DNA of 64,000 nt from the NCBI GenBank assembly GCA_029262235.1, contig JAJCZU010000004.1, positions 771,330 through 835,329 on the forward strand, given 5' to 3'. Below the pieces are notes generated by a model, which was not told where the DNA came from, ran no database searches, and saw nothing but the letters and a program-made list of their open reading frames with translations. The stretch is from Candidatus Eiseniibacteriota bacterium. Lineage in GTDB: Bacteria > Orphanbacterota > Orphanbacteria > Orphanbacterales > Orphanbacteraceae. The position numbers were made by a program, and so were the translations under genes. Below are positions 10,137 through 62,596 of the stretch, in pieces. Position 1 is the first letter of the stretch. Each line of letters starts with the position of its first letter.

Positions 10137-11084
10137 TTGAATCGATTCCTGTCCTACGGCATCAAGCTTCTGGTCACCGGTGGCCTTCTCTGGTGGGTGT
10201 ACCGCCAGCTGCCGATCGGAGAAGTGTGGCAGGCGCTGCGAGCCGCGGATCCCGGACTGCTGATCCTCGGCCTCGTCGCCACCACACTGCTTCGACTCAC
10301 CGCCGCCTACCAGACACGGCTCCTGACCGCGCAGCAGGGCATGACGATTTCGACGTGGCGGATCTGGGCCGTGAATTACGAAGCGGCGTTCTACGGGCTT
10401 TTCGTGCCGGGATACGTCGCGAGTTCGGCCGTGCGCTGGTATCGCATTGCGCAACCGGACGGCATGCGGATGCAGACCGCGGTCGTGATCGTGACGTACC
10501 GGATTCTGGACACCTTCGTTCTCGTTCTGACGGGGTTTCTGCTCTACGGACTCGATTCGAACGCGGAAAAGCCCCGGATCGTCGGTCCCGCCATGCTGAT
10601 CGTGCTCGTCCTGCTGGGCGCGATGTATCTTCTGGTGTTTAATCGTCCGTTCGCGCGATTCATCTTCAGAATGCTCGACCGGATTGCGCTGCCGGATTTT
10701 GTCGCGAGCCGCCTGCACAAGCTGAAAAGCGCCGCGGGTCTCATGCACGACCTGCCGCCGAAAACACACGCGCTCGTATTATTCTATTCATTCGTGAAAC
10801 ATTTCTGCACGGTGATTTCAGGGGTGCTGCTCGTCGCCTCGCTCGACACGAATCTGTCGATCATGACGAGCGCCTGGGTGCGTCCAGCCGTGTTCGTACT
10901 TACGATGCTGCCGATTTCGTTTTCGGGGCTCGGCGTGCGGGAGGGGGCGCTCTTCTATCTGCTCGACTTCTACCGCACAGAGCCGGCCGCGATCGCCGCG
11001 ATTTCTATCCTGTTCTTTCTGCCGCTTCTGCTCTCCGGGTTTGTCGGCGCCATTCTGGAATCCCGACGCTTCTTTCGCAGGTAA
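10137..11084 (+). CDS. Flippase-like / lysylphosphatidylglycerol-synthase-TM-domain (UPF0104) membrane protein
   Basis: 315 aa polytopic membrane protein with 8 or more TM segments; the N-terminal 'LLVTGGLLWWVYRQL' start is typical of the family. Confidence 0.6.
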   Translation: MNRFLSYGIKLLVTGGLLWWVYRQLPIGEVWQALRAADPGLLILGLVATTLLRLTAAYQTRLLTAQQGMTISTWRIWAVNYEAAFYGLFVPGYVASSAVRWYRIAQPDGMRMQTAVVIVTYRILDTFVLVLTGFLLYGLDSNAEKPRIVGPAMLIVLVLLGAMYLLVFNRPFARFIFRMLDRIALPDFVASRLHKLKSAAGLMHDLPPKTHALVLFYSFVKHFCTVISGVLLVASLDTNLSIMTSAWVRPAVFVLTMLPISFSGLGVREGALFYLLDFYRTEPAAIAAISILFFLPLLLSGFVGAILESRRFFRR

Positions 11085-11103
11085 ACGAATCAGCCGGGCA
11101 AGC

Positions 11104-13929
11104 TCACGGATTGATCTTTGCGCGCGCCGGTCCGAATTGCGGGTCGAGGGAAAGCGCGTTCTCGTAGGCGCGCATGGCGTCGCCCCTTCGGCCCGCGGCC
11201 TCGTGAACGAGGCCGGCGCGGTAGTGGGTCAACGGATTGCGCCGGTCAATACTGAGGGACCGCTCGAGCGCCTGCAGTGCGGGGCCGTGCGCACCCGCCC
11301 GCAGCGATGCAAGACCGTTTTCGCTCCAGGCAGTGGCTGCCGCGTGATCGATCGAGCGCGCGTGCCAGGCTTCGGCCCAGTTGCGGTGTTTCATGGCAGC
11401 GCCGGAGCCCACCACGACGAGAAGCGCGAGAGCGACCGGCGCGAGGGACGCGGACTGGAAACGGGGCGCGTGAGGCACCGCCCCCTCGAGCGCGGCGTCC
11501 TTGTATGCTGCCGGCTCATGGCGCGGAGGGCGGGGGGGCCTTGCGGGGAGCACGAATCGCAGGATCAGCAGAATGAGGCCCGCGCCGCTCATCATCAGTC
11601 CCTTCCGCATCCACGCGGGACGGTATTGCGCCTCGTACGTGCCCGGCACGGGAGCGGGGAATGCGAGGAAGAGTCCGTCGGCCTGGAGCGTCGTCAGAAC
11701 TTCGCCCGCGGGATCCGTAACGCGCCATCCCGGGTCGTACGTTTCCGCGAGCACGACGAGTCCGCCTCGGTCGACATCGACAAGTCGCGAGTTCGGCCCC
11801 GTGATCGTAAGCGGAAGCGGCCGGTTTGCGGCGCCCGGGAACGGCGGGCCCTGGAACGATGGTGTGCCGGGGAGCACCGGGGCGCGGTCGACGAACGTAA
11901 TGGCGCGCGGGTCGTGATCCTTCGCGTGGACCGCTCGCAGGAGGTTTGCGCGGTGCTGTTCCGCCCGCCATCGCAGCGAGAGCCGGGCGCGCGGCATCGG
12001 GTTCCTGTTTCGTGTGAGGAACAGCCCTCCCGGAAGGGGGGCGCCGGTCCGCGACGAAAGCGCGGCATCGACGCTCAGAAGGTCGAGCATACGTTCGCTG
12101 TACGCGGGATTCGGAACGCCGGACGTGCCTTCGGGAATGCCGACCCATTCGCGCCATGCGGTGGGAACGAGTGGGGTGAAGCCTTCGGCTGATTCCGCGC
12201 CGTAGAGGAGCGGAACGTTCGGAGTGAGTGACCAGCCGGCCGTACGATACTCGCTCCCGCCCGGCAGTTCCGCTTGCGGCTCTCCGCGCGCAGGCTCGCG
12301 CACGCTCCATCCCGGGGTGAAAGGGTCGACCCGGTCTCGCGCCGGGCGAAGCGTCCGGATTTCGTCGATGTCCCGTCGCGCAAACCGGGGGGCGTGATCG
12401 AGAGTTTCGAGAGCGTGCACTGCCGGCGGCGGCTCTGTTAGAAGCGCGGGATCGATCACGGGATTCCAGCCCCGCCCCCAGAGAAGCAGGTCGAGTGACA
12501 GGATCGCGAGGGGCGCGTAACGGAGCGGAACCGCGTAGCGAATGTAGGTGAAGAGTGCGAGAATGCCGATGCCCGCGCAGCCGAACACGATCGCGTGAAG
12601 CCGGTCGGCGCTCTGTGCATTCTGCAGTCGCGCGAGGCGCGCCGCCCAGTCGTTCGCGAGCGCGGATCCTTCGCCCGCAGCCGCGATCAGCGCTTCGCCC
12701 GGCGTCCCCCAGTTCCCCTGCGCCGCGATTCCGAGGAGCACGAGTGCGACCGTGCCGGCGCCCGCAACGGCAAGCGCCCGGCGCGAACGCCGGCGTACCG
12801 TCGCGTCGATCCCGCACCCGGCGAGGAGCGCCATGCAGAGCAGGAACGGCATCGCGAACCGGCCCGGAATGCGCGTGGCGTCCAGCAGCGGGAACGCGCC
12901 GAGGGCGTTCCACGCGAATCCGTAGCGGCCGATCATGACTGCGAACGAGAGCGCGGCCCCCGTGGCGAGCGCGAGGGGGACACGCCCGCGCAGAAAGAAC
13001 AGCCCGACGCAGACGCACGGGATCGCGCTTGCGCCGAAGTAGAAACAGGTTTCTGCATAAAGCGTCCAGTCGAGGCCCCCGTACCACGTGTCGAGCCGGG
13101 GTGTCCCCTGCAGATTCGGCAGCGCCGCGTGGAGCAGGTTCCACGGCGGGAGGGAGCCGAGGGATCGGAATGCTTCGCTCATGCCGGCGCTCCGCTCCGT
13201 TTCGCGAAGGAGCGAGAAAGTGGCCACTGTCTGGAACGCGCCCGCGAGAAGGCCCGCGCCGGTCGAATAGAGCACCCGCAGGTATCCGCGCATGCCGTAT
13301 CCGCCGCCCACTCTCGCAACCACGAGTGTGAACAGCATCGCGATCGCGGCGAGAATGGTGCCGTTCGGGTGCGGCGCGAGCGAAAGAAGCGTCCAGCCGA
13401 TCGCGAGAACGATCGCATGTGCCTTGTGCCCCTGCAGGGCGCCGAGCGTGCCCCATATGATCCAGGGCATCCAGGCTGCGCCGGCGAGAAGATTGAAGTC
13501 CGAAATATGTGTGACGAGAAAACCGGAGAACGCGTACATCGTGCCCGCGAACAGCGCGGACGTGTGACGTGTGTCCAGAAGCCGAGCCATCTGATACGCG
13601 CCGAAACCGGCCCATGCGAAGTGAAGAATGATGTCCCATGCGAATGCGAGCGTCGGCGGTAGAAGCGTGAACAGTGCGAAGGTGGTCGGGTAGAGCGGCG
13701 CGGTCTGCGATTCAGCGAACAGGGGATACCCGGCGAACATCCCTGACGTCCAGAGCGCGAAGTGGCCGCTCTTCAGCTGTTCGAACCACCACGCCCTCGT
13801 GGCGAACGAATGCATCCACGCTTCGTGATGGAAGAACGCTCCCCCGAACGCCGCCTCGCGAAAGAATACGATCGGAGCGATCAGAAAAAAGAGCGTGGCT
13901 TCGAACTGACGGCGGTTGATGCCGAACAT
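11104..13929 (-). CDS. YfhO-like polytopic membrane protein with C-terminal TPR repeats (putative glycan or protein glycosyl-transfer / polymerase-type membrane protein)
   Basis: 941 aa. About 14 TM segments at the N-terminus, then a large soluble domain, then C-terminal TPR repeats (RAGLVHEAAGRRGDAMRAYENALSLDPQF). Lies 9 nt downstream of the thioredoxin gene on the same strand. Confidence 0.6.
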   Translation of the reverse strand: MFGINRRQFEATLFFLIAPIVFFREAAFGGAFFHHEAWMHSFATRAWWFEQLKSGHFALWTSGMFAGYPLFAESQTAPLYPTTFALFTLLPPTLAFAWDIILHFAWAGFGAYQMARLLDTRHTSALFAGTMYAFSGFLVTHISDFNLLAGAAWMPWIIWGTLGALQGHKAHAIVLAIGWTLLSLAPHPNGTILAAIAMLFTLVVARVGGGYGMRGYLRVLYSTGAGLLAGAFQTVATFSLLRETERSAGMSEAFRSLGSLPPWNLLHAALPNLQGTPRLDTWYGGLDWTLYAETCFYFGASAIPCVCVGLFFLRGRVPLALATGAALSFAVMIGRYGFAWNALGAFPLLDATRIPGRFAMPFLLCMALLAGCGIDATVRRRSRRALAVAGAGTVALVLLGIAAQGNWGTPGEALIAAAGEGSALANDWAARLARLQNAQSADRLHAIVFGCAGIGILALFTYIRYAVPLRYAPLAILSLDLLLWGRGWNPVIDPALLTEPPPAVHALETLDHAPRFARRDIDEIRTLRPARDRVDPFTPGWSVREPARGEPQAELPGGSEYRTAGWSLTPNVPLLYGAESAEGFTPLVPTAWREWVGIPEGTSGVPNPAYSERMLDLLSVDAALSSRTGAPLPGGLFLTRNRNPMPRARLSLRWRAEQHRANLLRAVHAKDHDPRAITFVDRAPVLPGTPSFQGPPFPGAANRPLPLTITGPNSRLVDVDRGGLVVLAETYDPGWRVTDPAGEVLTTLQADGLFLAFPAPVPGTYEAQYRPAWMRKGLMMSGAGLILLILRFVLPARPPRPPRHEPAAYKDAALEGAVPHAPRFQSASLAPVALALLVVVGSGAAMKHRNWAEAWHARSIDHAAATAWSENGLASLRAGAHGPALQALERSLSIDRRNPLTHYRAGLVHEAAGRRGDAMRAYENALSLDPQFGPARAKINP

Positions 13930-29302: not shown

Positions 29303-30456
29303 CCGACGGTATCGATCGCGCGATTCGGGACCAGTTCCCGATACTCGCGAAGAAGAACTATCTCGTGAGCCATTCGCTCGGCGCGATGCCGGTCGGCGCG
29401 CGCGAAGGGCTCATGCAATATGCGGACGAGTGGGAGACGAAGGGCGTGGTCGCCTGGGAGGAAGGGTGGTGGGAACTGCCCGTTACGATCGGCGACAAAG
29501 TCGGCGCGATCATCGGCGCCCCGCGCGGCTCGGTCGGCATGCAGCCGAACGTTTCGCTCGCAACGGGCGTATTTCTCTCTTCGCTTCCGTTCGAGGGAAA
29601 ACGCAACAAGATCGTCACCACCGACATGAACTTCCCGACCAATCTGTATCTGTTCGAAGGGTGGGAGAGTGCGGGAGCGCGCGTCGTTCGCGTGCCGACG
29701 AAAGACGATGTGAGCGTCGAAACGGAGCGCCTGATCGCGGCCATCGACGCGGAAACCCAGGTTGTCGCGATTTCGCACGTTCTCTTTCGTTCCTCGTACA
29801 TACAGGACGTCGCGGCGGTCGTGGCGAAGGCGCATGCCGTCGACGCGCTCGTTCTGATCGACGTCTATCAGTCGGCGGGGACCGTGCCGCTGCACGTCTC
29901 GGATCTCGGCGTCGACGCCGCGGTCGGCGGATGTCTGAAGTGGCTGTGTGGGGGGCCGGGCAACGCGTTCCTGTACGTGCGCCCCGACCGCGCGCGCGAA
30001 CTGAAACCGCGTCTCACGGGGTGGCAGTCGCACGAGAAGCCGTTCGCGTTCGATCGTGATTCGTTCCGGCGGGCGGAGGGCGCCTGGCGTTTCCTGACCG
30101 GCACGCCCACGATCGCGACCATGCGCGCGGCCGAAGCGGGGCTCGGGATCGTGCATGCGGTGGGCATGGACAAGATTCGCGCGAAGTCCCTCCGTCTTAC
30201 GCGGCTGATTCTCGACCGCTGCGATCGCGAAGGGTGGCCCGTGAATTCGCCGCGCGATGACGCGGTGCGCGGCGGGACCGTGACGATCGCGCTTCCCGAT
30301 GCGGAGCAACTGAAGGACGAGCTGATTCGAAACGACATTCTCGTGGACTACCGGCCGAGCGCCGGCGTTCGGATCGCGCCCCACTTCTACAATACCGAGG
30401 AAGAAGTGCTGGCGGCACTCGACGCGCTGGCCGCCATCACAGGAGCGAAGCGATGA
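29299..30456 (+). CDS. kynU: Kynureninase (PLP-dependent)
   Basis: 'GCLKWLCGGPGNAFLYV' matches the KynU PLP-lysine region (YKYLNGGPG). About 385 aa. ATG at 29299 overlaps the stop of the upstream DUF2779 gene (ATGA). Confidence 0.7.
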   Translation: MTDGIDRAIRDQFPILAKKNYLVSHSLGAMPVGAREGLMQYADEWETKGVVAWEEGWWELPVTIGDKVGAIIGAPRGSVGMQPNVSLATGVFLSSLPFEGKRNKIVTTDMNFPTNLYLFEGWESAGARVVRVPTKDDVSVETERLIAAIDAETQVVAISHVLFRSSYIQDVAAVVAKAHAVDALVLIDVYQSAGTVPLHVSDLGVDAAVGGCLKWLCGGPGNAFLYVRPDRARELKPRLTGWQSHEKPFAFDRDSFRRAEGAWRFLTGTPTIATMRAAEAGLGIVHAVGMDKIRAKSLRLTRLILDRCDREGWPVNSPRDDAVRGGTVTIALPDAEQLKDELIRNDILVDYRPSAGVRIAPHFYNTEEEVLAALDALAAITGAKR

Positions 30457-31088
30457 GCCCCGAAATCATCGATATTTCACGCGCGCTGACGGCAGAGACC
30501 GCGCCATGGCCGGGTGACGTCCCGTTCTCGCGCGAATGGACGACCCGGATCGAAGACGGCGCGGCCGTGAACCTGAGTGCGTTCCGGATGTCGCCGCATG
30601 TGGGGACGCATGCGGACTCGCCGTTTCATGTCACGGCCGGCGCGCCCGGAATCGAATCGATGCCCCTCGGGTCTTACATCGGTTATGCGCGCGTCGTCAC
30701 GGTGCCGGGGAAACCGAAGCAGGTCGTACCCGAGCACCTGGCCGCGTTCGACCTCAAGATGCCGCCGCGCATTCTGCTGCGAACGAGCACTGATCCTGAC
30801 CCCACTGTGTTTCCCGAAGAGTGCACCACGCTTTCGCCCGACCTGGCCCGTCTTCTCGCGCACGGAGGTACGAAGCTCGTCGGCATCGACACGCCGAGCA
30901 TCGATCCGACCGACTCCAGAGAACTGGCCGCCCACAAGATTCTGGCGGAAGCCGGGATCGTGTGGCTCGAGAACCTCGACCTCACGCATGCCCCCGACGG
31001 CATCTATCTGCTCGCGGCGCTTCCGCTCAAGATCCCGGGATCCGACGCGGCCCCGGTCCGCGCCGTTTTAGTCCGCGACATCGAATAA
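30453..31088 (+). CDS. kynB: Kynurenine formamidase (cyclase-family arylformamidase)
   Basis: 'PHVGTHADSPFH' is the HxGTHxDxPxH cyclase-family motif. ATGA overlap with kynU. Confidence 0.7.
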   Translation: MSPEIIDISRALTAETAPWPGDVPFSREWTTRIEDGAAVNLSAFRMSPHVGTHADSPFHVTAGAPGIESMPLGSYIGYARVVTVPGKPKQVVPEHLAAFDLKMPPRILLRTSTDPDPTVFPEECTTLSPDLARLLAHGGTKLVGIDTPSIDPTDSRELAAHKILAEAGIVWLENLDLTHAPDGIYLLAALPLKIPGSDAAPVRAVLVRDIE

Positions 31089-31175
31089 ACTCCCCGTTCG
31101 ACGAGTAATCCCTGCAGCAACAGACTGAAGAAGAATCGGATCAGGAGGCGCGAGGTCGTTATTCTTCTCGACCCG

Positions 31176-31452
31176 CTCGTCCTGGCCAAATGGCCAACTA
31201 CGGAGGCCGAGCGGGATCCGAAGAACAACTCCTCGCGCCTCGGAATCCGCCTTCACACAGCGGTTTGTGCGCGGGGGGGAGACCGGCTGGCGAGACTCGA
31301 TTCATAGGATTTGGGCATCTCCGTCTCCGCCCTCCGGACCCGCTCCCTTCCGCTCCTGCCTCGCCGCCTCCATTGGAAGGGGAATGGGGGCGTGGAAGGT
31401 CTTTCCAGGAGGCCTCTCGGCCTCCGTAGTTGGCCAGTCTGGCCAGGACGAG
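31176..31452. repeat. About 36-bp near-perfect inverted repeat pair flanking about 205 bp (MITE-like or structured-RNA element) in a 470-bp intergenic region
   Basis: Arm 1 (31176-31211) is CTCGTCCTGGCCAAATGGCCAACTACGGAGGCCGAG. Arm 2 (31416-31452) is its reverse complement with 3 mismatches. Each arm contains a TGGCCA..TGGCCA internal palindrome. Confidence 0.55.
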
Positions 31453-31515
31453 AGGCCTCCGGGAAGATCCTTTCACGCCCCAAGCCTCCTCTTCCTATTT
31501 TTTTACAAATGTGAT

Positions 31516-31537
31516 ATCATATCGATATTGATATGAT
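31516..31537. promoter_or_regulatory. 22-bp palindromic operator-like site in an AT-rich promoter region upstream of the SPFH-Arc pair
   Basis: ATCATATCGAT|ATTGATATGAT is a palindrome with a single mismatch. It sits in TTTTTTTACAAATGTGATATCATATCGATATTGATATGATGG, 25 nt upstream of the SPFH ATG. Confidence 0.5.
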
Positions 31538-31561
31538 GGCTCAAAGAAAGGAACGCATACC

Positions 31562-32440
31562 ATGATCAAGGAACAAACAAGAGGTGCCTGGAGCGGCTAT
31601 TTCATGCTGTTCGTCGTGATTTTCTTTTTCCTCTTCTCGCTCGCGGTCGTAATCACGGGCGGGGCGAGCGGCGTCCGTATCTTCGTGCTGCAGGGCATCT
31701 TCGGACTCTTCATCACTGCGTTTCTGGGGGCGGGATTTTTCATCGTGAACCCGAATCAGGCGCGCGTGCTTGTGTTGTTCGGCAAGTACAAGGGCACCGT
31801 GAAGCAGAACGGCTTTTTCTGGGCGAACCCGTTTTTCGTCAAGACGAAGGTGTCGCTCCGCGCGCGCAATCTGAACGGCGAGCGGCTCAAGGTGAACGAT
31901 CAGTCGGGGAATCCGATCGAGATCGCGGCCGTGGTCGTGTGGCAGGTGTCCGACACCGCGCGCGCGTCGTTCGATGTCGACGACTACAAGGAATACGTGG
32001 TCGTGCAGAGCGAAGCGGCCGTGCGGCATCTGGCGGGGTCGTACCCGTACGATACGTGGGAGGACGATCACGAAGGCGTCATCACACTGCGCGAGGGCAC
32101 GGAGGTCGTGAGCCAGATGCTGGAAAAGGAGCTGCGCGAACGCTTCAGCCGAGCCGGAGTCGAAGTGATCGAAGCGAGAATCAGCCATCTCGCCTACGCG
32201 CCCGAAATCGCCGAAGCGATGCTGCGCCGGCAGCAGGCGAGTGCGGTCGTCGCGGCGCGCACGCAGATCGTCGACGGCGCGGTGGGCATGGTGAGCATGG
32301 CCCTCGAAAAGCTGTCGCAGCAGGGCATCATCGACTTCGACGAAGACAAAAAGGCGACGATGGTGAGTAACCTGCTCGTGGTTCTCTGCGGCGAGTCGTC
32401 GGTTCACCCCGTGATCAACACCGGCACGCTGCACCAGTAG
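31562..32440 (+). CDS. SPFH / band-7 (stomatin-prohibitin-flotillin) domain membrane protein
   Basis: N-terminal TM segments followed by an SPFH core ('[17 protein letters not shown]...AVVVWQV'). Confidence 0.7.
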
Positions 32441-41715: not shown

Positions 41716-42010
41716 TGAATATAATCCTCCGCCTTCTCTATCGAGGATCGGCAGACCTGCGCAGAATCATTCATGTTCCGCGCGGGAAAACGTTTTCGTT
41801 GGGAAATGATGCGAATTTTGTCGAAGGGGGCCAGCCCGGCGTAAGCGCGAAGAAAGCGCGCGTTTGGGTCAGGCGGGTGCAGGGAGGGTTCGTCTCGCCC
41901 GCCCGTTCCCGTGTGTTCCCAACCCCAGCGCCCGTTCACGCTGGACAGTAACGCGCCTCTGTAGGATGATCGGATCTACAACGAATCACACCCCCTTACA
42001 AGTAAACGAC

Positions 42011-43081
42011 ATGACACTTCAGCAGCGCATCCGAGCATCTTCGATCTTCCGTATTCCGTTAGCCGTGACATTCCCGTTCGCATTCCCGTTCGCACTCATG
42101 TTCGCGCTACTGGTTGCGCTTGTGATTGCTCCGCCGCGCGCGACTGCCGAACCCGTTGCCCGCGGCATGACTGTCTCCTGTCAGACGTGGGGGTGGGAGT
42201 GGGGGAGCGACGAAATGGTCGCGACGATGGCCGATCTCAAGGCGATGGGATGCAACTGGATCGCGATTCATCCGTACGCCGGGATTCGGGGCGACGGCGA
42301 AGTCGTTTCCCGCATGGTCGAACGCGGCGAAACGCCCGACTGGCTGACGCGCCCGATCGAAGAAGCCCATCGTCTCGGCCTCAAGATGATGATCAAACCG
42401 CATATCGCATACTGGGGCGGGCCGTTCTCGTGGCGCGGCGAGATCACGTTCGAAACCGACGAAGAGTGGGATCGGTTCTTCACGACTTACACCGCGTGGA
42501 TCGTCGAAGTTGCGCGCATCTGCCAGGACGCCGACGCTTTCGTTGTCGGCACAGAACTCGACCTCACGCTCGGTCACGAAGAGCAGTGGAAGCAGATCAT
42601 CGCTGACGTACGCGCCGTAACCGACGCGCCCCTGACATACGCTGCCAACTGGACCGACTACGAACGCGTGACTTTCTGGCCGCAGCTCGACGTGATCGGA
42701 ATCCAGTCGTACTTTCCGCTCGCCGACACTCTCGGCCTCCGCGAAGAGGCGAGCCTCGACTCCGCGTGGGCCTCGCTCGGCGACAGATTGCGCGCTTTCG
42801 CCGAACCCCTCGACAAACGCGTGCTGCTCACCGAGCTCGGCTACAACCGTTCGTCGAGCGCCGCATGGAAACCGTGGGAGTATCGGTCAGGTGGCGATGA
42901 TGCCGAAGAAATCCAGCGCCGCTGCATGAACGCCGCGCTCCGCGCGCTCGAAGGGAACGATCTCTTCGTCGGCGCGTTTCTATGGAAATGGTTTCCCGGT
43001 GAACAGCAGGGGAGGCGCGGCAACTTCCTTCTCTCGACGCCCACAATGCGGGGTGTGATTTCTTCGAACTGGGGGAAGTAG
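42011..43081 (+). CDS. Secreted glycoside hydrolase, clan GH-A (cellulase-like / GH5-GH113-like (beta/alpha)8 fold)
   Basis: Signal peptide; 'VLLTELGY' is a catalytic-nucleophile-type motif; 'WGWEWGSDEMVATMADLKAMGCNWIAIHPYA' is a cellulase-like N-terminus. The start (42011 vs 41966) is uncertain. Confidence 0.55.
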   Translation: MTLQQRIRASSIFRIPLAVTFPFAFPFALMFALLVALVIAPPRATAEPVARGMTVSCQTWGWEWGSDEMVATMADLKAMGCNWIAIHPYAGIRGDGEVVSRMVERGETPDWLTRPIEEAHRLGLKMMIKPHIAYWGGPFSWRGEITFETDEEWDRFFTTYTAWIVEVARICQDADAFVVGTELDLTLGHEEQWKQIIADVRAVTDAPLTYAANWTDYERVTFWPQLDVIGIQSYFPLADTLGLREEASLDSAWASLGDRLRAFAEPLDKRVLLTELGYNRSSSAAWKPWEYRSGGDDAEEIQRRCMNAALRALEGNDLFVGAFLWKWFPGEQQGRRGNFLLSTPTMRGVISSNWGK

Positions 43082-43099
43082 GCGAAGCGGGTTGGTCGG

Positions 43100-43220
43100 G
43101 TGGCGGGATAATCCTCCTCGCCCTCGCCCTGTCGTGCCGCGGTATCAAGTCAGGTAAACGAGATCATCGTTGCCCGGCCCTCCAATGGGGCTCGGGTCTG
43201 CGGGGGATCATCTCGCCACC
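43100..43220. repeat. About 120-bp MITE-like repeat, copy 1
   Basis: Terminal inverted repeats GGTGGCGGGATAATCC and GGATCATCTCGCCACC. Internal blocks CCTCCTCGCCCTCGCCCTGTCG and CCCGGCCCTCCAATGGGGCTCGGG are shared with copy 2. A partial third copy lies at about 43290-43350. Confidence 0.55.
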
Positions 43221-43373
43221 CGCCAGCACGACTTCGCTTGGTGAGGGCGGACGGAAAAGAGGGGGGAGGCGGGTGTGCGCTCGAAACAATCCTTCTCGCC
43301 TTCGCCCTGTTGTGCCGCGGTGCATTGCTCTTCGCCCGCTCGACATGGCCGACTGGCCGCGAAGCACGGGCTT

Positions 43374-45410
43374 CTATCGCAGCAGGATCAGTTTCAAGCC
43401 AGTGTTCGTGTTCGCCGAAATCAGTGAGATGAAGTAGGTCCCGGCGGCGACGGCCAGCCCTTCGTCGTTGTTGCCGTCCCACTCGATGATGCGAGCTCCT
43501 TCACTCCCCCGCAATGTTCTCACGAGTCGACCACTGATATCGAACACGCGGAGTTCCGCGGGAAGTAGGAGATCGTGCGAAGGGGTGAGCAGGATATGTG
43601 CTCCGGTTCGTGTGGGGTTGGGGCCGAGCAACTGGAGCGGGCGTACGGTGAAGTCGGCGTGATCGATAACGTTTGTCGGTGTTTCGCACCCTGCTCCCCG
43701 TGCGCCGATGAGGCCGCAACCAGGGGCTGATAGGAGTGGGGAGGTGTCTTCCAGCGTGTAGTCATTCGTTGTCGTATCGCAGAAAAGGGGATCTACATGG
43801 AGATTTCCACTGGAGTCACCGATACCGGCGACGCAGCCGACCCAGTCGCCACCTGTATTGTCGAACAAGTTCGTGCACGTGACGCTCACGTTAGCCGGGT
43901 CCTGACACGAAATCGCCGGACCTGGATTCGTATTGAACGCGAGGATCGAGCGGTCGATGTCGAAATCGACATTCTCAAGATGCAAGCTCGCTTCTGTCGT
44001 CGCTGTGTTCTGGACGCAGGATACGTTGCTCAGCGTGATCGCTTTGATCATGCTTTCTCGGTTGGACAACTCTCTCCCTGCGATACCGAGCGCCCTGCCG
44101 GCCGAATCGTCGAATCGTCCGGGGCTGCTCAATTGGCCACTGAAGATCACGCTTCCGTGCGCCGCCGTATTGCCGGCGATCACGGTAGTGTCGATGGTGA
44201 TGTCTGAGCCGGCCGTAGCAATCGCGCCGCCATCTCCGGGTGTATCGTTCCCGAGAATGGTCGTATGAGTGATGTGGAAGGGGGAGCCGAAAGCATAGAG
44301 ACCTCCGCCTCCGTTCACAGCATTGTTCCCCACGAGTTTGGATCTGGTCACTTGTACATCCAGTGCGAACCATCCACCGAGAGCCCCGCCCCTGAGAGCG
44401 GAGTTCCCCTGGAGGGTGGAGTTCCGAATCGTGACGTTCGAAGCATCAGCGAGTAGCCCGCCGCCGGTAGCGCCCGATTCATTCGACTCGAACAGGCACG
44501 AGTCGAAGGTCGCGTCGGCTTCCATTACCAACACCGCCCCACCACCACCCAGAGACCACAACTCACTACCTGTCACAATGTTGCATGACATCGTGCAGGA
44601 CACGACCGAAACCTCGGTGAGCCAGAGGTACAGGCCGCCGCCGTTTCCTGCCTGATTCGAATCGATTCGGGAAGCTGTGAACGACGGATTCCCGCCAAGG
44701 GTTCCTTCCGTTTGATACCACCCCCCACCAAGCCCCGTCGCCATGTTTCCCGTGACCTTGCAGAACGACACGGTCAGATCAGTTTGTGAGTATCCTCCCG
44801 CACCGTTCGCTGCCTGATTCGCGCACACCGTGGACTGCGTCACCGTCACCTCGCCATACCGGCAGTAGATTCCGCCTCCGCGGTCCTGGGCAGCATTGCT
44901 GTCCACCACGCACGAAGTGATTCGAGGTCCCGGATTGGCGCTGCCCCAGATGGCTACACCACCTCCGTCGATGGCGGCGTTTGATCGAATCACACTATCC
45001 ATGATTCGAAGGTCGGCATTAACTGCGAATATGCCTCCGCCTGAAGTGTCGGGGGCAACCAGTGCAGTTCCGCCCGTGATCGTCAGATTCTTGACGAGTG
45101 TAGTTGTATCCGTATTCGAACAATCCAGCACGCGGCCAAGTTGCTGAGCGTCGATCACGACGGAATCGGGTGCCGCGCCTTCGCCGAGCAACACAATCCC
45201 TGACTTCATGACAATCGAATGTTCGAAGTGGGTTCCTACTCCAACGAGAACCGTGTCTCCGGCCGCTGCCGAATCGATCCCCGCCTGGATCGTGGAAACG
45301 TCACCCGAACCGTTCGACTCAACGGTCCAGACAGCTGCGCTCGCCCGGTTTACTACCAGCAGTAACCCCGCAAGGAGAATGCAGAGATAGGGCATGCGGA
45401 ACGAGAACAC
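43374..45410 (-). CDS. Secreted right-handed parallel beta-helix repeat protein with a C-terminal T9SS / FlgD-Ig-like sorting domain
   Basis: Signal peptide; many 'N..ING/GGA' beta-helix repeats; the C-terminus '...GTYFISLISANTNTGLKLILLR' fits the T9SS CTD pattern. Confidence 0.65.
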   Translation of the reverse strand: MFSFRMPYLCILLAGLLLVVNRASAAVWTVESNGSGDVSTIQAGIDSAAAGDTVLVGVGTHFEHSIVMKSGIVLLGEGAAPDSVVIDAQQLGRVLDCSNTDTTTLVKNLTITGGTALVAPDTSGGGIFAVNADLRIMDSVIRSNAAIDGGGVAIWGSANPGPRITSCVVDSNAAQDRGGGIYCRYGEVTVTQSTVCANQAANGAGGYSQTDLTVSFCKVTGNMATGLGGGWYQTEGTLGGNPSFTASRIDSNQAGNGGGLYLWLTEVSVVSCTMSCNIVTGSELWSLGGGGAVLVMEADATFDSCLFESNESGATGGGLLADASNVTIRNSTLQGNSALRGGALGGWFALDVQVTRSKLVGNNAVNGGGGLYAFGSPFHITHTTILGNDTPGDGGAIATAGSDITIDTTVIAGNTAAHGSVIFSGQLSSPGRFDDSAGRALGIAGRELSNRESMIKAITLSNVSCVQNTATTEASLHLENVDFDIDRSILAFNTNPGPAISCQDPANVSVTCTNLFDNTGGDWVGCVAGIGDSSGNLHVDPLFCDTTTNDYTLEDTSPLLSAPGCGLIGARGAGCETPTNVIDHADFTVRPLQLLGPNPTRTGAHILLTPSHDLLLPAELRVFDISGRLVRTLRGSEGARIIEWDGNNDEGLAVAAGTYFISLISANTNTGLKLILLR

Positions 45411-45586
45411 AGAAACCGACTCCGTTCGATGATTGAGAGCTCATTGATTGTAGCATATCGCATCAGGCGCGCTTCTTATGGGACGGGAGCGAGACGATCC
45501 GTTTGTTTGGGCGACAGAACGAAGGGACTGTTCCCCGCCATCCCCCCTCCGGATTCCTCACGCCCCAAAGCGTGATCGGAGGGGCG

Positions 45587-45709
45587 GGCGGTGAGACATT
45601 CCCCCGCAGTCCCGAGCCCCATTGGAGGGCCGGGGGTTCGGCGATCAGGCTTCATGTCTCATGTGAGCAGGCCCGACAGGGCGAGGGCGAGGAGGAATGT
45701 CTCACCGCC
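45587..45709. repeat. About 120-bp MITE-like repeat, copy 2, inverted relative to copy 1
   Basis: Perfect 16-bp TIRs GGCGGTGAGACATTCC and GGAATGTCTCACCGCC. The internal sequence is the reverse complement of copy-1 blocks. The stop codon of the VWA gene (45702-45704) lies inside the right TIR. Confidence 0.55.
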
Positions 45710-46799
45710 CCCGCCTCTTGCGATTCCGCAAGAAATCTACCAGCACAAAATCACCCACCTGATCCGCCGAGCTGAAGAACGCCCGCCCGCGGTTCTTCTC
45801 CGTGAGTTCCGCGATGAACTGCTCGAGGTACGGATCCTGCGCGACCATGAACGTCGTGATCACGATCCCCTTGCGCCTGCAGACGACGGCTTCGTCGAGC
45901 GTGCGGTTCACGATCATCTCGTCGAGTCCGAAGGTGTTGCGATACGTTCCCTGGCCCGGTATCTGAATCACGGTCGGCTTGCCGTCGGTGATCATGAAGA
46001 TCTGCTTGTTGGGATTCTTGCGCCGCTCGAGAAGTTTGCGCGCGAGCTGCAGTCCGGCTTTCGTGTTCGTGTGGTACGGGCCGACGGCCGTGAACGGCAG
46101 GTCCTTGATGGGCACGGGGCGCGCGTCGTCGCCGAAGAGCACGATGTCGAGCGTGTCTTTGCGGTACCGCGTCATGATGAGTTCGGTGAGCGCGAGCGCA
46201 ACCTGCTTGGCGGGCGTGAAGCGATCTTCGCCGTAGAGAATCATGCTGTGGGAGATGTCGAGCAGCAGCACGGTGGCGCAGGAGGTCGCGAACTCGGAAT
46301 CGTGCACGACGAGATCACGCTCTTCGAGCGGAACGTCGGTGTTCCCTTCGCGCCGTACGGCGTTCCACATCGACGCGTTGAAGTCGATCGCTTCGATGTC
46401 GTCGCCGAACTGAAAGTCGCGCCGCTCGGGAAGCGCCTCGTTCGTGTTGCCGCCGCCGTACGGCGTCATGTGCGCGCCCTGCCCGCCCGACTGCAGATTC
46501 TGGAAGATGCGTTCGAGCGATGATTGGCGAAGCCCCTGCACGCCCTTGTCGGTGAGCTGCATTTTACCCAGTTCGGTGCTCACGATTTCGCGATCGTTCA
46601 GCTGCTTCTGGAACGCGTCGAGGTCGACGCTTTCGTCGAGGTAGCCGCGCTGCTGCAGCTGGCGCATCATTTCCATGGCGCGCTCGGGATCGCCGTTCGA
46701 CTTGAGCAGCAGAAAATTGAACAGGTCGAGCAGCTGCTTGAAATGGCTGAGCTTCTTTAAGAGCTCGGGATCCCAGGAGCCGTAACGAAAGCCGAACAT
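45702..46799 (-). CDS. VWA (von Willebrand factor A) domain protein
   Basis: 'VLLLDISHSM' is a MIDAS DxSxS motif and 'IFMITDGKP' is vWA-like; positioned downstream of the AAA+ gene. Confidence 0.65.
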   Translation of the reverse strand: MFGFRYGSWDPELLKKLSHFKQLLDLFNFLLLKSNGDPERAMEMMRQLQQRGYLDESVDLDAFQKQLNDREIVSTELGKMQLTDKGVQGLRQSSLERIFQNLQSGGQGAHMTPYGGGNTNEALPERRDFQFGDDIEAIDFNASMWNAVRREGNTDVPLEERDLVVHDSEFATSCATVLLLDISHSMILYGEDRFTPAKQVALALTELIMTRYRKDTLDIVLFGDDARPVPIKDLPFTAVGPYHTNTKAGLQLARKLLERRKNPNKQIFMITDGKPTVIQIPGQGTYRNTFGLDEMIVNRTLDEAVVCRRKGIVITTFMVAQDPYLEQFIAELTEKNRGRAFFSSADQVGDFVLVDFLRNRKRRGR

Positions 46800-46809
46800 A
46801 ACGCGCCCC

Positions 46810-48270
46810 CTAAAGGTCGCGCATCATGCGGCTCAGCATGTCGCCGTAGCGCACGGCGCCGCCGATTCCCTCGCGCGAGAGAATCGAATGCTGGTGCATC
46901 GCCTCGAGCACGAACTCCTGCGCGGCAAGGCGCACTTCGGGCGTTTCGGGCTCGAGATAGTTGTCGACGAGTTCGTTCAGGCCGTCGATGCTCGAGAACT
47001 GCGCGGCGAGTTCGCCAGAAAACGGCAGATCCGAGACGTCGATCGTGTTCCCGGCGTTGAACCACGCCGCCACGCGCCCGTAGAGCGGCTCGGATGCGTC
47101 CGGGTGGGCCTTGTCTTCGTGCACGGACGGAAAGTACTCCTGAAAGATCGATTTCACGGCCTTGCCAATCAGGCGTTCCGCCACGATGTTCGGCCCTTCC
47201 TGCTCCCCTTCGTACACGAGTTCGAGCTTGCCCGTGATCGCGGGCAGCACGGCATAGAGATCGCTGAGCCGCGCGGTCGGGCTCGGATCGCCGTTCGCGA
47301 CCATGCGCCGTTCCACGCTGCTCGTCAAAAGCTCCAGTGCCGCGATCGCGAGTCGCGCGCTGACGCCCGAAGTCTGGTCGACGTGTTCGCTGAGGCGCGC
47401 CTGCACCGCGATCTCTTCAATCGTTTCGCGCAGAAAATCGGGCACGGTGACGGCCACGCTGCGATCGGTCGACGCTTCCTGGTCCGTGATCATCATCGCG
47501 TCCTCGAGGCTCTCGGGATAATGCGTGATGATCTGGCTCGCGATGCGGTCCTTGAGCGGCGTTATGATGTTCCCGCGGTTCGTGTAGTCCTCGGGATTCG
47601 CCGTGAACAGAAAGATCATGTCGACCGCGAGGCGAATCGGAAAGCCGCGTATCTGCAGATCACGTTCTTCGAGAAGATTCAAAAGGCCGACCTGAATGCG
47701 CGGCTGAAGATCGGGGATCTCGTTCAGACAGAAGAGGCCGCGGTTCGTGCGCGGCACGATGCCGTAATGAATCACGCGTTCGTCAGAGAGATCGAGCCGT
47801 TCGCGCGACGCCCGGATCGGGTCGATGTCGCCGATAAGATCAGCCATGCTGACGTCGGGTGTCGCGAGCTTTTCCTGATAGCGCGCGGAGCGGTGCAGCC
47901 AGGCGACGGGCGTGTCGTCGCCCGCTTCTTTCACGAGCGTGCGCGCGAAGTGCGAGGCGGGGCGAAGCGGATCATCGTTCAGGGGGGCGCCGTCGACAAC
48001 GGGCGTCCATTCGTCGAGGAACGCCGAGATCGCGCGACAGACTCTCGTCTTCGCCTGGCCGCGCAGGCCGAGCAGAAGGAGGTCGTGGCGCGAAAGAAGC
48101 GCGTTCACGATCGCGGGAATCACCGAGTCGTCGTAACCGACGATGCCGGGAAAAAGCGTGCGCTTTTCGCGGATCGCGTCGAGCAGGTTCGCGCGCACTT
48201 CGTCGCGGATGCTCCGGGATTCGTAGCCGCTCGCCTTGAGCGCGCCGAGGGTGCCTGGCTTTTGCTGCAT
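46810..48270 (-). CDS. MoxR/ChlI-like AAA+ ATPase
   Basis: Walker A 'GLRGQAKT' is the MoxR-style GxxGxAKT. The sensor / arginine-finger region 'IFLFTANPEDY...TPLKDRI' is present. The Walker B position reads 'LFCLNEI', with N in place of the usual D. The start (48270 vs 48354) is uncertain. Confidence 0.6.
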   Translation of the reverse strand: MQQKPGTLGALKASGYESRSIRDEVRANLLDAIREKRTLFPGIVGYDDSVIPAIVNALLSRHDLLLLGLRGQAKTRVCRAISAFLDEWTPVVDGAPLNDDPLRPASHFARTLVKEAGDDTPVAWLHRSARYQEKLATPDVSMADLIGDIDPIRASRERLDLSDERVIHYGIVPRTNRGLFCLNEIPDLQPRIQVGLLNLLEERDLQIRGFPIRLAVDMIFLFTANPEDYTNRGNIITPLKDRIASQIITHYPESLEDAMMITDQEASTDRSVAVTVPDFLRETIEEIAVQARLSEHVDQTSGVSARLAIAALELLTSSVERRMVANGDPSPTARLSDLYAVLPAITGKLELVYEGEQEGPNIVAERLIGKAVKSIFQEYFPSVHEDKAHPDASEPLYGRVAAWFNAGNTIDVSDLPFSGELAAQFSSIDGLNELVDNYLEPETPEVRLAAQEFVLEAMHQHSILSREGIGGAVRYGDMLSRMMRDL

Positions 48271-48630
48271 GAGCTTCCTTTTGTCGGGAACAGGGGGGAG
48301 GGGCTCGATCCATTCGAGTTCGTATATAATAGTAAGGGCTGCCCGGGGGATCAAGGCGGCGCCGGTGATTGGACCGAAGCGGGGAACGATTTGACGTGGC
48401 TCCCGATTCTCCGTATCCTGAATCTATAACGATTCTGTGAGCAACGCTCCGACCGACGATCGCCTAACGTGATGAACCATGGCGGCTTCGGCGACAGGGT
48501 CCCTCTGGAAACGGGCGGGCCTCCCGTGTTTGGAAAGGAGCGATGCGGAACCGGCTGATCAACGCGATCGGTCCGGCTGTTTCGCGTTCGCCTTTTCCTG
48601 GCTCACACCCCTCGGGGAAAAGGCGATGCC

Positions 48631-49926
48631 ATGCTTTCCTTCGAAGATGCCATCAAAAGTACTTTGCAAGCCGTGCAGGCTGTCGAAACCGAAGCGATGC
48701 CGCTTCTGGGCGCCCAGGGACGCGTGCTGCGCGCGCCGGTGACCGCCGATCGCGATCTGCCGCCGTTCGACCGGAGCGAGCGTGACGGTTTTGCCGTGCG
48801 CGCCGAAGACTGCGCGAATGGAAAAGCGACCCTGCCCGTTCACGCGCGCACGATTTACGCGGGCGACGAGCCGGGCGCCGCGATCGAACCGGGGACGGCC
48901 ATCCGCATCATGACGGGGGCCCCGCTTCCCGAAGGCGCGAACGTGGCGGTTCCGGTCGAGAAGACGATCGAGACGGGCGCGGGTGAGGCGGGCGAGGTGG
49001 CCGGCGCGGATGCCGGCGTTCGCCCGCGGGTGGTCATCGACTATCCCGCGATCAAGCCCGGGCTTCATGTGCATCCGCGCGGCTCCGATGCGCGCGCCGG
49101 CGCACTGCTGCTCGATACGGGCACCGTGCTCGGCCCGTCCGAAATCGCCGCGGCGGCCTCGGTGGGCGCCGGTACCGTGACAGTTTCCCGCCGCATTCGC
49201 GTCTCCGCGCTTTCTACAGGCGACGAACTCGTAGCGATCGAGGACGCGCCCGGCCCCGCGGCCATTCGTGACTGCAACGGGCCCGTGATTCTCGCGATGG
49301 CGTCCGCGCATCCGTGGATTCACGCGATCGGGTCGTATCGCGCGCCCGACGATCGTGGCGTGTTGCGCGAAACCATCGCGCGCGCGCTCGAGAGCGCCGA
49401 CGTGCTCGTACTTTCCGGCGGCGTGAGCATGGGAACGAAGGACTTCGTGCCCGGCGTGCTGGCGGAGCTCGGCGTAGAACAGATCTTTCACAAGACCGCC
49501 ATTCGCCCCGGGAAGCCGCTCTGGCTCGGCGCCGCGCCGAACGGGGCGCACGTTTTCGGCCTCCCGGGAAATCCGGTCGCCGTGCAGGTCACGTTTCGCG
49601 AAATCGTAATGCCGGCGCTTCGCAAACTGGCGGGCATGGCGCGCACGAGCGGCCCCGAATATGTGCTCCCTCTGGCGATACCCGTTTCGAAATCGATTCC
49701 GTTCCGTCAGTTCGTCCCCGCCCGCGTCGTGCCGGGCAATCCGGCGGGCGAACCGCACAAATCGCCGCTTTGCTCGTGCTCGCACGCGCTGCCGCTCGAC
49801 CATCGCGGGTCGGGCGACTTCGTTTCCGCCGCGCGCGCCGAGGGCGTGATCGTGCTGCCCGAAGGGCCGCACGAGTTCAGGGCGGGCGACCCGGTCATGT
49901 TTCACCCCTGGGGACCATCATGCTAG
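48631..49926 (+). CDS. moeA: Molybdopterin molybdenumtransferase
   Basis: MoeA-family similarity throughout ('GPVILAMASA', 'LSGGVSMGTKDF', 'GLPGNPVA'). Confidence 0.8.
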   Translation: MLSFEDAIKSTLQAVQAVETEAMPLLGAQGRVLRAPVTADRDLPPFDRSERDGFAVRAEDCANGKATLPVHARTIYAGDEPGAAIEPGTAIRIMTGAPLPEGANVAVPVEKTIETGAGEAGEVAGADAGVRPRVVIDYPAIKPGLHVHPRGSDARAGALLLDTGTVLGPSEIAAAASVGAGTVTVSRRIRVSALSTGDELVAIEDAPGPAAIRDCNGPVILAMASAHPWIHAIGSYRAPDDRGVLRETIARALESADVLVLSGGVSMGTKDFVPGVLAELGVEQIFHKTAIRPGKPLWLGAAPNGAHVFGLPGNPVAVQVTFREIVMPALRKLAGMARTSGPEYVLPLAIPVSKSIPFRQFVPARVVPGNPAGEPHKSPLCSCSHALPLDHRGSGDFVSAARAEGVIVLPEGPHEFRAGDPVMFHPWGPSC

Positions 49927-61183: not shown

Positions 61184-62596
61184 CTAGCGGATCAGATGCA
61201 GTTTCCGGGTTTCGGCGGTCGCCCCGTCATACTCGAGGCGATAGAGATAGACCCCGCTGGCGGCATCGCGCCCCGCATTGTCGCGCCCGTCCCAGATCGT
61301 CGTATGCGTTCCCGCGCCTTCCGTGCCGGACACGAGCTGGCGCACCACGCGGCCCGACTGGCTGTAGATCGCGAGATTGACCGCGCCGGTCGCGGGGAGC
61401 GAGTAGCGAATGCTGGTCGTGGGATTAAACGGGTTCGGCACGTTCGGCAGCAGCTGCGCCTGCGTGGTCGAAAGCGGCGCACCGTCGGCAACGGAAGTCG
61501 CCGTCTGCAGCCGGATCAGGTAGAGCCCCGTCTGCCGGTCGCTCACGATGATCGTGCCCGACGGGAGATACGGATAGACCCCCCAGGCGCCGTCGTACAC
61601 ACCAGCCCCCGGCTGCGGGTGCGTATCCCAGAAGCCGAGTTCCACTTCGTTGTCGCGATCGCTGAAGTCGACCACGCGAAGACCGTTGCCGTAGTACGCG
61701 ATATACGCCGTGTCGCCCACCGTATGCACGTTATGGGCCGACGTCTCGAATCCGCCCACTTTGTAGCGCGACGTCTGATAGATGTTCTGGTAGTCGGTGA
61801 CGTTCCAGCAGCGAACCGCTCCGTTCGGCTGCTCGTCGGCCGTCACGAACGAGTCATGGCCCTTGAGCGGCGCGATGTGATGGCTCGACCTCCCGTAGTT
61901 GAACGTCGCGAGGTTCACGATGCTCGCCGGATTCGACGTATCGAGAATGCGAAACTCCTGCGCGTTGATGCACGCGACGTACGCCGTATCGTTCTCGACC
62001 CAGAGATCGTGAATGTACTGCGTGTTCCACGTCCCCACCTGAACCGGAGCGATCGGATTGCTGAGGTCCACCATGCGAAACCCCTGGTTCGCGTTCGTGC
62101 CGCAGAGATACGCCATTGAAGAGGTGGTGTCGATGTAGATGTTGTGCGCGGTGGAGAAGTTGCTGCCGAGCCAGTTCGTGACCACGAACGGCGCTTCGGG
62201 ATCCGACATGTCGATGATCTGCATCCCGTGGCCGGTGCCTTCGCTCACGACGTAGGCGTAATGGCCCAGCGTCTTCACGTCGTGCCACCCCGACCCGACG
62301 AGTCCCGGGAGGAACGATACGAACGCCGGGTTCAGCGGATCCGTCACGTTATAGAAGATCGTTCCCGTGTTGTACGTCACGAGCGCGTATTCGTTTCCGT
62401 TCGGCGCCACGTATCCCCAGCAGTCCTGATACCCGTTCGGGTTCGACGGGTAGTCGTTCACGTTGGCGAGAAGGACCGTATTGCAGTGCACGGAATCCTC
62501 CGCGGCGAACGCGGTTCCGCAAAGCAGGGTGCAGAGCAGCGTGCAGAGCACGCCGACGATCATACCAGGACGCATGCGATTGTCTCCTTTGTTCAA
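61184..62596 (-). CDS. LVIVD-repeat beta-propeller protein with a T9SS C-terminal sorting domain
   Basis: Signal peptide; repeated 'YAYV...GL.I.D.S.P' LVIVD-like units; C-terminus '...SGVYLYRLEYDGATAETRKLHLIR'. Confidence 0.6.
   Translation of the reverse strand: MNKGDNRMRPGMIVGVLCTLLCTLLCGTAFAAEDSVHCNTVLLANVNDYPSNPNGYQDCWGYVAPNGNEYALVTYNTGTIFYNVTDPLNPAFVSFLPGLVGSGWHDVKTLGHYAYVVSEGTGHGMQIIDMSDPEAPFVVTNWLGSNFSTAHNIYIDTTSSMAYLCGTNANQGFRMVDLSNPIAPVQVGTWNTQYIHDLWVENDTAYVACINAQEFRILDTSNPASIVNLATFNYGRSSHHIAPLKGHDSFVTADEQPNGAVRCWNVTDYQNIYQTSRYKVGGFETSAHNVHTVGDTAYIAYYGNGLRVVDFSDRDNEVELGFWDTHPQPGAGVYDGAWGVYPYLPSGTIIVSDRQTGLYLIRLQTATSVADGAPLSTTQAQLLPNVPNPFNPTTSIRYSLPATGAVNLAIYSQSGRVVRQLVSGTEGAGTHTTIWDGRDNAGRDAASGVYLYRLEYDGATAETRKLHLIR

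Follow-up and report, generated by a model that had tools for sequence, protein, structure and literature searches.

In a 64,000-nucleotide stretch of DNA from Candidatus Eiseniibacteriota bacterium, hereafter 'the window', two long, non-coding, hairpin-forming elements (copy 1, 'c1', and copy 2, 'c2') lie in inverted orientation at the 3' ends of a convergent gene pair, which encodes a GH113 glycoside hydrolase and a VWA-domain protein, with a gene for a right-handed beta-helix protein between them. We lean, with some reserve, towards the view that c1 and c2 are paralogous 3'-end hairpins bound to this locus, and not transposons, and that the spacer between them later received the beta-helix gene. 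The original prediction had described inverted copies of an element resembling a MITE (miniature inverted-repeat transposable element), bracketing a cassette that might be mobilised or invertible. The two inverted copies of a hairpin-forming repeat around the gene were borne out. The cassette was not, because two related genomes have the hairpins without the gene, which sits on a 2.28-kb insertion into the spacer between the two older hairpins. The beta-helix gene is a strain-specific orphan insertion, and an annotation as 'MITE-flanked mobile cassette' would be wrong.

Two inverted hairpins between convergent genes

Copy c1 spans 43080..43240 (+), sense to the GH113 gene, and c2 spans 45571..45724 (-), sense to the VWA gene; both are delimited by their fold, by a covariance model (R1) and by comparison with orthologous copies (orthologs for c1, one ortholog for c2). 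Read in its own direction, c1 consists of a 5' arm (43082-43117), block A (43113-43134, +), a variable loop (~43141-43172), block B (43173-43196, +) and a 3' arm (43202-43237). In + coordinates, c2 runs through a 3' arm (45579-45605), block B (45611-45634, -), a variable loop, block A (45674-45695, -) and a 5' arm (45691-45717). The sequences of block A, CCTCCTCGCCCTCGCCCTGTCG, and block B, CCCGGCCCTCCAATGGGGCTCGGG, are shared by the two copies with 0 mismatches, and shuffled sequences gave 0.00 matches to them by chance.

The copies had been predicted to be about 120 bp long, with 16-bp terminal inverted repeats that were perfect in copy 2. Each copy does have inverted arms of its own, but the sizes had to be revised. 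Pairing, bulges included, covers the whole of 43080-43240 and 45571-45724, which gives units of ~155-160 nt. The arms of c1 are 36 nt long and 72% complementary, and those of c2 are 27 nt long and 89% complementary, including a perfect run of 17 nt. The original prediction had also proposed RNA folding as a check, and both copies fold far beyond shuffled sequence (-89.8 kcal/mol and z -5.98 for c1, -85.9 kcal/mol and z -5.59 for c2). Nor is the similarity between them shorter than had been read by eye: c1 aligns with the reverse complement of c2 over 124 nt at 83% identity, with a score of 100 against a null maximum of 25.

Model R1 was built from five full copies found in three genomes; run over the window with filters off, it gave 175 bits to c1 and 167 bits to c2. 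When the relatives described below are included, known copies are units of 150-175 nt, with arms of 24-42 nt that are 72-96% complementary. No open reading frame (ORF) is conserved across the copies, and a comparison with Rfam 15 returned no match to the element at gathering thresholds and, at E <=10, only noise from eukaryotic families. The same arrangement was found in two Logan contigs, L035 and L036, which are an independent assembly of the same organism, and this rules out an assembly artefact. A single orientation was seen in the window and in both of these contigs.

The hairpins adjoin the genes very closely. The GH113 gene (41864..43081, +; Pfam PF22612 GH113, E 6.9e-39; orthologs in L019, L037, L038, L044, L045 and L048) ends with a TAG codon (43079-43081) that directly adjoins the base of c1. 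The VWA gene (45702..46799, -; 365 aa; PF13519/PF00092), which lies downstream of an AAA_5 (MoxR-like) ATPase gene (46810-48354), ends inside c2: its TGA codon (45702-45704, -) and its last 4-6 codons sit within the c2 5' arm, much as had been predicted. Both copies are therefore sense to the gene that they follow, c1 after GH113 on the + strand and c2 after VWA on the - strand, c1 beginning at the stop codon and c2 just before it. The 'inverted' layout of the copies is what results when convergent genes carry homologous elements at their 3' ends.

The basic C-terminal tail of the VWA protein is normal in length and in composition when set beside 49 homologs, and at the DNA level it resembles the tail of L048, a relative that is free of the element (AAGAGGCGGGGGCGGTGA in the window, AAGAGGGGGTGA in L048). 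This suggests that coding sequence inherited from the ancestor makes up at least part of the outer 5' arm of c2, and that the arm is not an imported terminal repeat.

Conserved blocks and covarying arms

Conservation was assessed against a neutral yardstick, the four-fold degenerate sites of the GH113, VWA and AAA_5 genes, at which the three genomes are 57-66% identical. In 10 of 10 pairwise comparisons between copies, the identity of blocks A and B lies at 85-100%. The arms show 32-84% identity between copies overall (52-84% between orthologs) and the terminal loop 30-72% between copies, while the centre of the spacer is unalignable among the three genomes. A consensus fold of 49 pairs could be drawn, in which 87% of the cells are paired; with slid partners the figure is 43-56%. 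In 16 pairs both sides have changed, as compared to 7.0 +/- 1.9 in shuffles (0 of 500 as high) and 3-7 in the slid controls. In the consensus fold block A pairs with block B, and in the c2 of L037 one C-G pair of this A:B helix has become U-A.

Judged by these identities, the blocks are under purifying selection at the level of sequence, and the arms under constraint at the level of structure only: they drift at a roughly neutral rate, yet stay complementary. Free variation is left to the loop and to the spacer centre. The hairpins offer a clean, small example of stems that are about neutral, with compensatory change, around two internal blocks held at 85-100%. This pattern points to a real function, specific to sequence, where two converging genes end in a lineage that is uncultured and little studied.

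Exchange between the copies is also apparent. The c1 loop of L019 is 70% identical to the loop of window c2, as compared to 39% for its own ortholog, window c1, and the segment L019:6990-7075 has a core and loop of the copy-2 type (87% to window c2, 45611-45695, over 112 nt). Since the L019 c1 loop is nearer to window c2 than to its own ortholog, the comparison indicates gene conversion between inverted copies in the L019 lineage. Since the origin of the pair, the arms would have drifted with compensatory changes, and the cores would have been kept alike by purifying selection together with occasional gene conversion.

The hairpins in related genomes

A scan of 185,579 species-representative genomes (GTDB) was made with a degenerate form of block A. 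It returned 34 loci, of which a single one, L019, from a metagenome-assembled genome labelled Gemmatimonadetes, also had block B. The 33 others were discarded as single chance matches in unrelated phyla, all without block B.

On contig L019 (GH113 89% identical in amino acids), the GH113 ortholog is followed by an orthologous c1 (L019:6944-7120) and, ~90 nt past it, by a segment (L019:7214-7260) that is 91% identical to window 45544-45589, the left flank of c2; the contig then ends. On Logan contig L037 (VWA 94% identical in amino acids), the VWA and GH113 genes are convergent and 458 nt apart, with both hairpins (c1 at 11400-11562, -; c2 at 11080-11225) and no gene between them. The hairpins are separated by 125-185 nt in L037 and L019, without the beta-helix gene. 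Comparison with relatives lacking the insertion, which the original prediction had proposed, was thus informative: the hairpins stand back to back in both. Because relatives have the hairpins without the gene, the inverted copies neither brought the gene in nor delimit a cassette.

More distant relatives, at 69-73% VWA identity, have no element. The spacers between VWA and GH113 measure 9, 68 and ~50 nt in L044, L045 and L048, respectively, and that of L048 holds a small hairpin only. In the L038 group (L038:11121-11303, also L039-L041; VWA 71%), the spacer contains one hairpin of ~183 nt, with a stem of ~45 bp and a fold of -101 to -120 kcal/mol, whose sequence is unrelated to that of c1 and c2. 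Different lineages have therefore put different giant hairpins into the same spacer.

The parsimonious history of the locus, as read from these comparisons, starts from a short spacer (9-68 nt) between the convergent GH113 and VWA genes. The hairpin pair was then gained a single time, in the lineage ancestral to L037, L019 and the window genome, most simply by inverted duplication of one hairpin. The foreign beta-helix gene was put into the spacer later, and in the window lineage only.

The inserted segment

BLASTN homology to L037 and L019 stops at window position 43268 and restarts at 45545. The segment between these junctions (43269..45544, no strand assigned; 2,276 nt) is lineage-specific and stands in place of ~118 nt in L037 and ~67-86 nt in L019. 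It holds a partial third copy of the element, the beta-helix gene and the 5' region of that gene. Both junctions lie outside the hairpins, ~26-28 nt away.

The beta-helix gene (43374..45395, -) encodes 673 aa from an ATG at 45395, and the ORF reaches a GTG at 45410. Its product matches PF13229 Beta_helix and PF13860, and carries a signal peptide; its C-terminal sorting domain is of type A of the type IX secretion system (T9SS; TIGR04183, 25.7 bits for a cutoff of 23), which agrees with its earlier designation as T9SS cargo. The protein is an orphan: the only match at 100% is to itself, and the next best has 41% identity over 33% of the length. The GC content at third codon positions is 0.66 for this gene, as compared to 0.74-0.84 for its neighbours. 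The gene is unrelated cargo on a foreign segment, which landed in the unconstrained centre of the spacer.

The partial third copy, 'copy 3' (43266..43325, +), had been noticed in the original prediction and is real, but as a fragment only. It repeats the 5' half of c1 in degenerate form, with 91% identity to 43110-43143 over 34 nt and a weaker likeness over ~43266-43325; it has a block A-like stretch (43291-43312, +; 3 mismatches to CCTCCTCGCCCTCGCCCTGTCG), no block B and no 3' arm. The possibility that it is a complete, diverged element was rejected, as it has no fold (z +0.38) and an R1 score at noise level (7.3 bits). Copy 3 is absent from L037 and L019. It is nearest to the window's own c1, and since its variant CGTGCC is otherwise found only in window c1, it points to a local partial duplication that took place during the insertion or later, and speaks against an element from elsewhere.

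The edges of the spacer are conserved on both sides. The edge beside c1 (43241..43268, no strand assigned) is the final stretch that aligns with L037 and L019 ahead of the insertion. At the edge beside c2 (45545..45578, no strand assigned), homology to both relatives resumes, with 91% identity to L019:7214-7260 and a block at 83% with L037; a small hairpin at this edge overlaps the outer stem of c2. A unit of ~20 nt (CCTTCCGGATTC[T/C]TCA..CGCC) is present in tandem duplicate in the L037 spacer (L037:11216-11400), and once, beside c2, in the window and in L019. The edges 43241-43268 and 45537-45578 are complementary (GAGGGGGG/CCCCCCTC, GGTGAGG/CCTCAC) and form a stem if the insert is removed (z -3.8), but neither L037 nor L019 has a spacer that is unusually stable as a whole. 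Tentatively, a third, central hairpin might have the beta-helix gene in its loop. We also considered the whole intergenic unit, edges included, as one giant palindrome, but the inverted similarity stops at the hairpin arms, and this was weakly supported.

A possible role at the 3' ends

Three regions make up the element: an outer stem, long and free to change in sequence as long as it pairs; an inner A:B helix, constrained in sequence; and a variable terminal loop of ~35 nt. A stable sense-strand hairpin of the c1 and c2 type stands directly at the stop codon in three genomes. Because the hairpins are sense at the stop codons of converging genes, have very stable stems, and replace the small-hairpin spacer seen in L048, c1 and c2 probably have a role as terminators or stabilisers. 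At the 3' ends of converging transcripts they could act as terminators without a U-tract ('I-shaped' terminators) or as insulators, and also as barriers against 3' exonucleases, stabilising the mRNA. The conserved A:B helix would be the site for a sequence-specific factor.

Several points weigh against this reading of c1 and c2. A scan for canonical promoters and terminators found nothing at either copy, and neither 3' arm is followed by a T-run. Judged by G·U pairs and by the minimum free energy of each strand, the sense-strand fold has no consistent advantage, since c1 copies favour sense and c2 copies antisense; selection could therefore act on DNA instead of RNA. A plain terminator leaves the 85-100% conservation of blocks of 22-34 nt unexplained, and termination or stabilisation is a role that we infer throughout. 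The covariation statistics come from five sequences in three genomes only. Lineage-specific gain, here of c1 and c2 and again of a second hairpin pair described below, is how mobile or selfish DNA behaves, and other copies may exist outside the sequence searched.

Among known systems, the closest kinds are intergenic palindromes, of the repetitive extragenic palindromic (REP) dimer or MITE-like type, and 3' hairpins that have no U-tract; c1 and c2 are set apart by a very narrow distribution and by an unusually clear split between constrained core and covarying arms. Hairpins between convergent genes that serve as U-tract-less ('I-shaped') terminators occur in GC-rich bacteria. Like these, c1 and c2 are long GC-rich stem-loops right after the stop, without a T-run, one per converging gene, in place of the small shared hairpin of L048. 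They differ from canonical intrinsic terminators by the absence of a U-tract, and from U-tract-less ones in being paralogous, with stems of 45-50 bp and an internal block conserved at 85-100%. To our knowledge, terminators do not normally have stems of that length enclosing so conserved a block, nor are the terminators of two converging genes, as a rule, paralogs of one another.

REP-type palindromes mostly lie downstream of ORFs, as dimers whose units face opposite ways; insertion of DNA between the two partners is documented, and roles at the RNA level, namely termination and mRNA stabilisation, have been proposed (Di Nocera et al. 2013, PMC3733652). The likeness to REP elements and their composites (bacterial interspersed mosaic elements, BIMEs, and REPINs) is considerable: they too are palindromic, GC-rich and non-coding, and stand downstream of ORFs, whether the neighbouring genes converge or run in the same direction; they typically come as two oppositely oriented units, as do c1 and c2, each after a stop codon; the stems of the partners may differ ('heterodimers'); and DNA can be inserted between partners. 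There are also differences. REP units are 20-40 bp long and present in tens to hundreds of copies, whereas c1 and c2 are of 150-175 nt and were detected at one locus. REP units carry a GTAG or CGTC tag, whereas c2 has no tag, and the 'tag' of c1 is the GH113 stop (GTAG in the window and L037, ATAG in L019). Finally, REP sequences often come with a gene for a REP-associated tyrosine transposase (RAYT), and none was seen in the window.

The known distribution of hairpins of the c1 and c2 type is very narrow, namely three genomes. If the pattern is general, it might offer a handle on termination and mRNA-end biology in GC-rich bacteria of the Fibrobacteres-Chlorobi-Bacteroidetes (FCB) group, and could help to explain where accessory genes land.

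A second hairpin pair in the window

Two other long hairpins, X (~31130-31256) and Y (~31372-31496), lie between a Cyclase gene (30453-31088, +) and a Band_7 gene (31562-32440, +). Their loops have in common an inverted core of ~28 nt, TCCTGGCCA[AA/GAC]TGGCCAACTACGGAGG; their stems are unrelated, and the pair is unrelated to c1 and c2. X and Y are absent from L047 (Band_7 94% identical; spacer of 192 nt) and from more distant relatives (spacers of 110-120 nt). L047 thus offers no ortholog for a covariation test, and the spacers are unalignable, so that neither boundaries nor target-site duplications (TSDs) can be read from them. Paired hairpins with a common core might be taken for a feature of convergent genes; this idea was rejected, as Cyclase and Band_7 are co-directional.

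Lineage-specific pairs of hairpins that share a core and differ in their arms are recurrent in this genome, and this recurrence leaves room for a selfish or mobile origin, or for some other generating mechanism. It could even be proposed that both pairs belong to a class, not described so far, of intergenic modules built from nested palindromes in an Eisenbacteria/Gemmatimonadota-like lineage, in which inverted long hairpins would arise de novo or by mobility, the shared, sequence-constrained core would be read by a dedicated factor, the arms would drift as long as they are paired, and the centre would be a preferred landing site for foreign genes. We attach little probability to this proposal; if it were true, foreign genes such as the T9SS beta-helix cargo would land preferentially between hairpins.

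An AT-rich palindromic motif (TGTGATATCATATCGATATTGATATGATGG and variants; window 31509-31539) stands immediately upstream of Band_7 in all relatives looked at (L038, L045, L046 and L047). From its position and conservation, it looks like an operator or promoter element.

Mobile elements and other explanations

If c1 and c2 were MITEs or foldback elements, that is, non-autonomous transposons, either each hairpin or the whole c1-spacer-c2 unit of ~450 nt would have been inserted by a transposase encoded elsewhere, and copy 3 would be the remnant of a further insertion. Much in the locus recalls such elements. Bacterial MITEs (Correia/NEMIS, ERIC, RUP, SPRITE; review PMC10969869) are of a similar size range, have inverted arms and form strong transcript hairpins; they are intergenic, may provide a stop codon or a terminator, and can differ in presence from one relative to the next. 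Here too the elements are small, non-coding and strongly folded, one arm supplies a stop codon, a partial third copy is present, and the gain is lineage-specific, the spacers of relatives being short and empty. The X/Y pair has a like architecture and a presence/absence polymorphism between relatives 94% identical. Even a low copy number is known in bacteria, as for MITEAba12, with 1-22 copies per genome (PMC10969869).

MITEs, however, have conserved terminal repeats, TSDs and dispersed copies. No direct repeat of at least 3 nt was found at the candidate ends of the five copies or of X and Y (a 2-nt TSD would not be statistically judgeable). The ends bound by a transposase should be the conserved part of a MITE, and here the arms are the least conserved part (32-84% between copies, as compared to 85-100% for the internal blocks), which casts doubt on their being MITE ends; the outer 5' arm of c2, moreover, consists of VWA codons that resemble the ancestral tail. 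The conserved ends and TSDs that define MITEs are lacking.

No sign of dispersal appeared in the sequence searched. In the 64-kb window, R1 found only c1 and c2, apart from weak matches to another long-hairpin pair, and in ~150 kb of related loci only orthologous copies. Blocks A and B, with up to 4 substitutions allowed, had no further occurrence in the 222 kb of the window and related loci together, and the 185,579 species genomes gave the one orthologous match in L019. A pattern that fits 5 of 5 known copies had 0 matches in 241 million JGI metagenome records (two JGI scans) and in IMG/VR. None of the 37 annotated ORFs of the window encodes a transposase, integrase, recombinase or RAYT. The original prediction had held that, with neither further copies nor TSDs, the repeat would be an isolated local duplication, and this is the situation in the sequence searched. 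We conclude that a MITE origin is unlikely.

Another reading would make the elements structured RNAs that act in trans or bind a protein, for example a small RNA derived from the 3' untranslated region (UTR), in which the CU-rich block A or the block B hairpin is the functional part and the long stem a scaffold for processing or stability. The strong purifying selection on the blocks alone, the covarying stems, the sense orientation in two 3' UTRs and the compensatory C-G to U-A change in the A:B helix of L037 c2 would all fit. Against it stand the absence of any Rfam match even at E <=10, the absence from the 64-kb window of a target complementary to block A or B with <=3 mismatches, the want of a sense-strand folding advantage, and the extremely narrow distribution. 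On balance, we regard a trans-acting or protein-binding RNA as quite improbable.

Very improbable, in our view, is the idea that the hairpins are structure-specific recombination sites comparable to integron attC, or mark an insertion hot spot, with the variable centre as a landing pad that exchanges DNA segments. The attC sites are likewise imperfect palindromes, of 60-140+ nt, with arms that keep their structure and not their sequence, a variable centre and an inserted, promoter-proximal gene associated with them. The spacer centre differs in the three genomes (2,276, 118 and ~67 nt), its conserved edges are able to pair around it, and a partial copy of the element stands at the insertion junction. 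On the other hand, the cores RYYYAAC/GTTRRRY (R''/R') occur on neither strand of any copy, no integrase is encoded in the 64-kb window, and c1 and c2 are inverted and not arrayed in tandem in one orientation. Their conserved blocks are internal and not at the base of the stem, the junctions lie ~28 and 26 nt outside the hairpins and not inside them, and a neutral identity of ~60% would leave an unconstrained spacer unalignable anyway.

Lastly, a cassette that c1 x c2 recombination would flip or move (phase variation, or a composite element) is scarcely credible: the gene is indeed flanked by inverted repeats of ~124 nt at 83% identity, the c1/c2 exchange in the L019 lineage shows that the copies recombine, and surface or secreted proteins such as this cargo are often encoded by phase-variable genes, but the repeats are present without the gene in L037 and L019, the gene's own 5' region is inside the segment so that flipping would not switch expression, no recombinase is encoded in the 64 kb, the sole independent assembly has the same orientation, and no close homolog of the gene elsewhere gives a sign of movement.

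Neighbouring features

Beyond the AAA_5 gene, a riboswitch for molybdenum cofactor (Moco; Rfam RF01055, 66.6 bits) was found at 48435-48556 (+), directly upstream of a MoeA gene (48631-49926) and of the next gene, for a MoaA-like radical SAM protein. Two other genes of the window encode probable T9SS or surface cargo, and have no hairpin elements nearby: one at 1480-3942 (-), for an 820-aa SdrD_B/CarboxypepD_reg protein, and one at 61184-62596 (-), for a protein of LVIVD repeats that has FlgD_ig and, at its C-terminus, a weak Por_Secre_tail.

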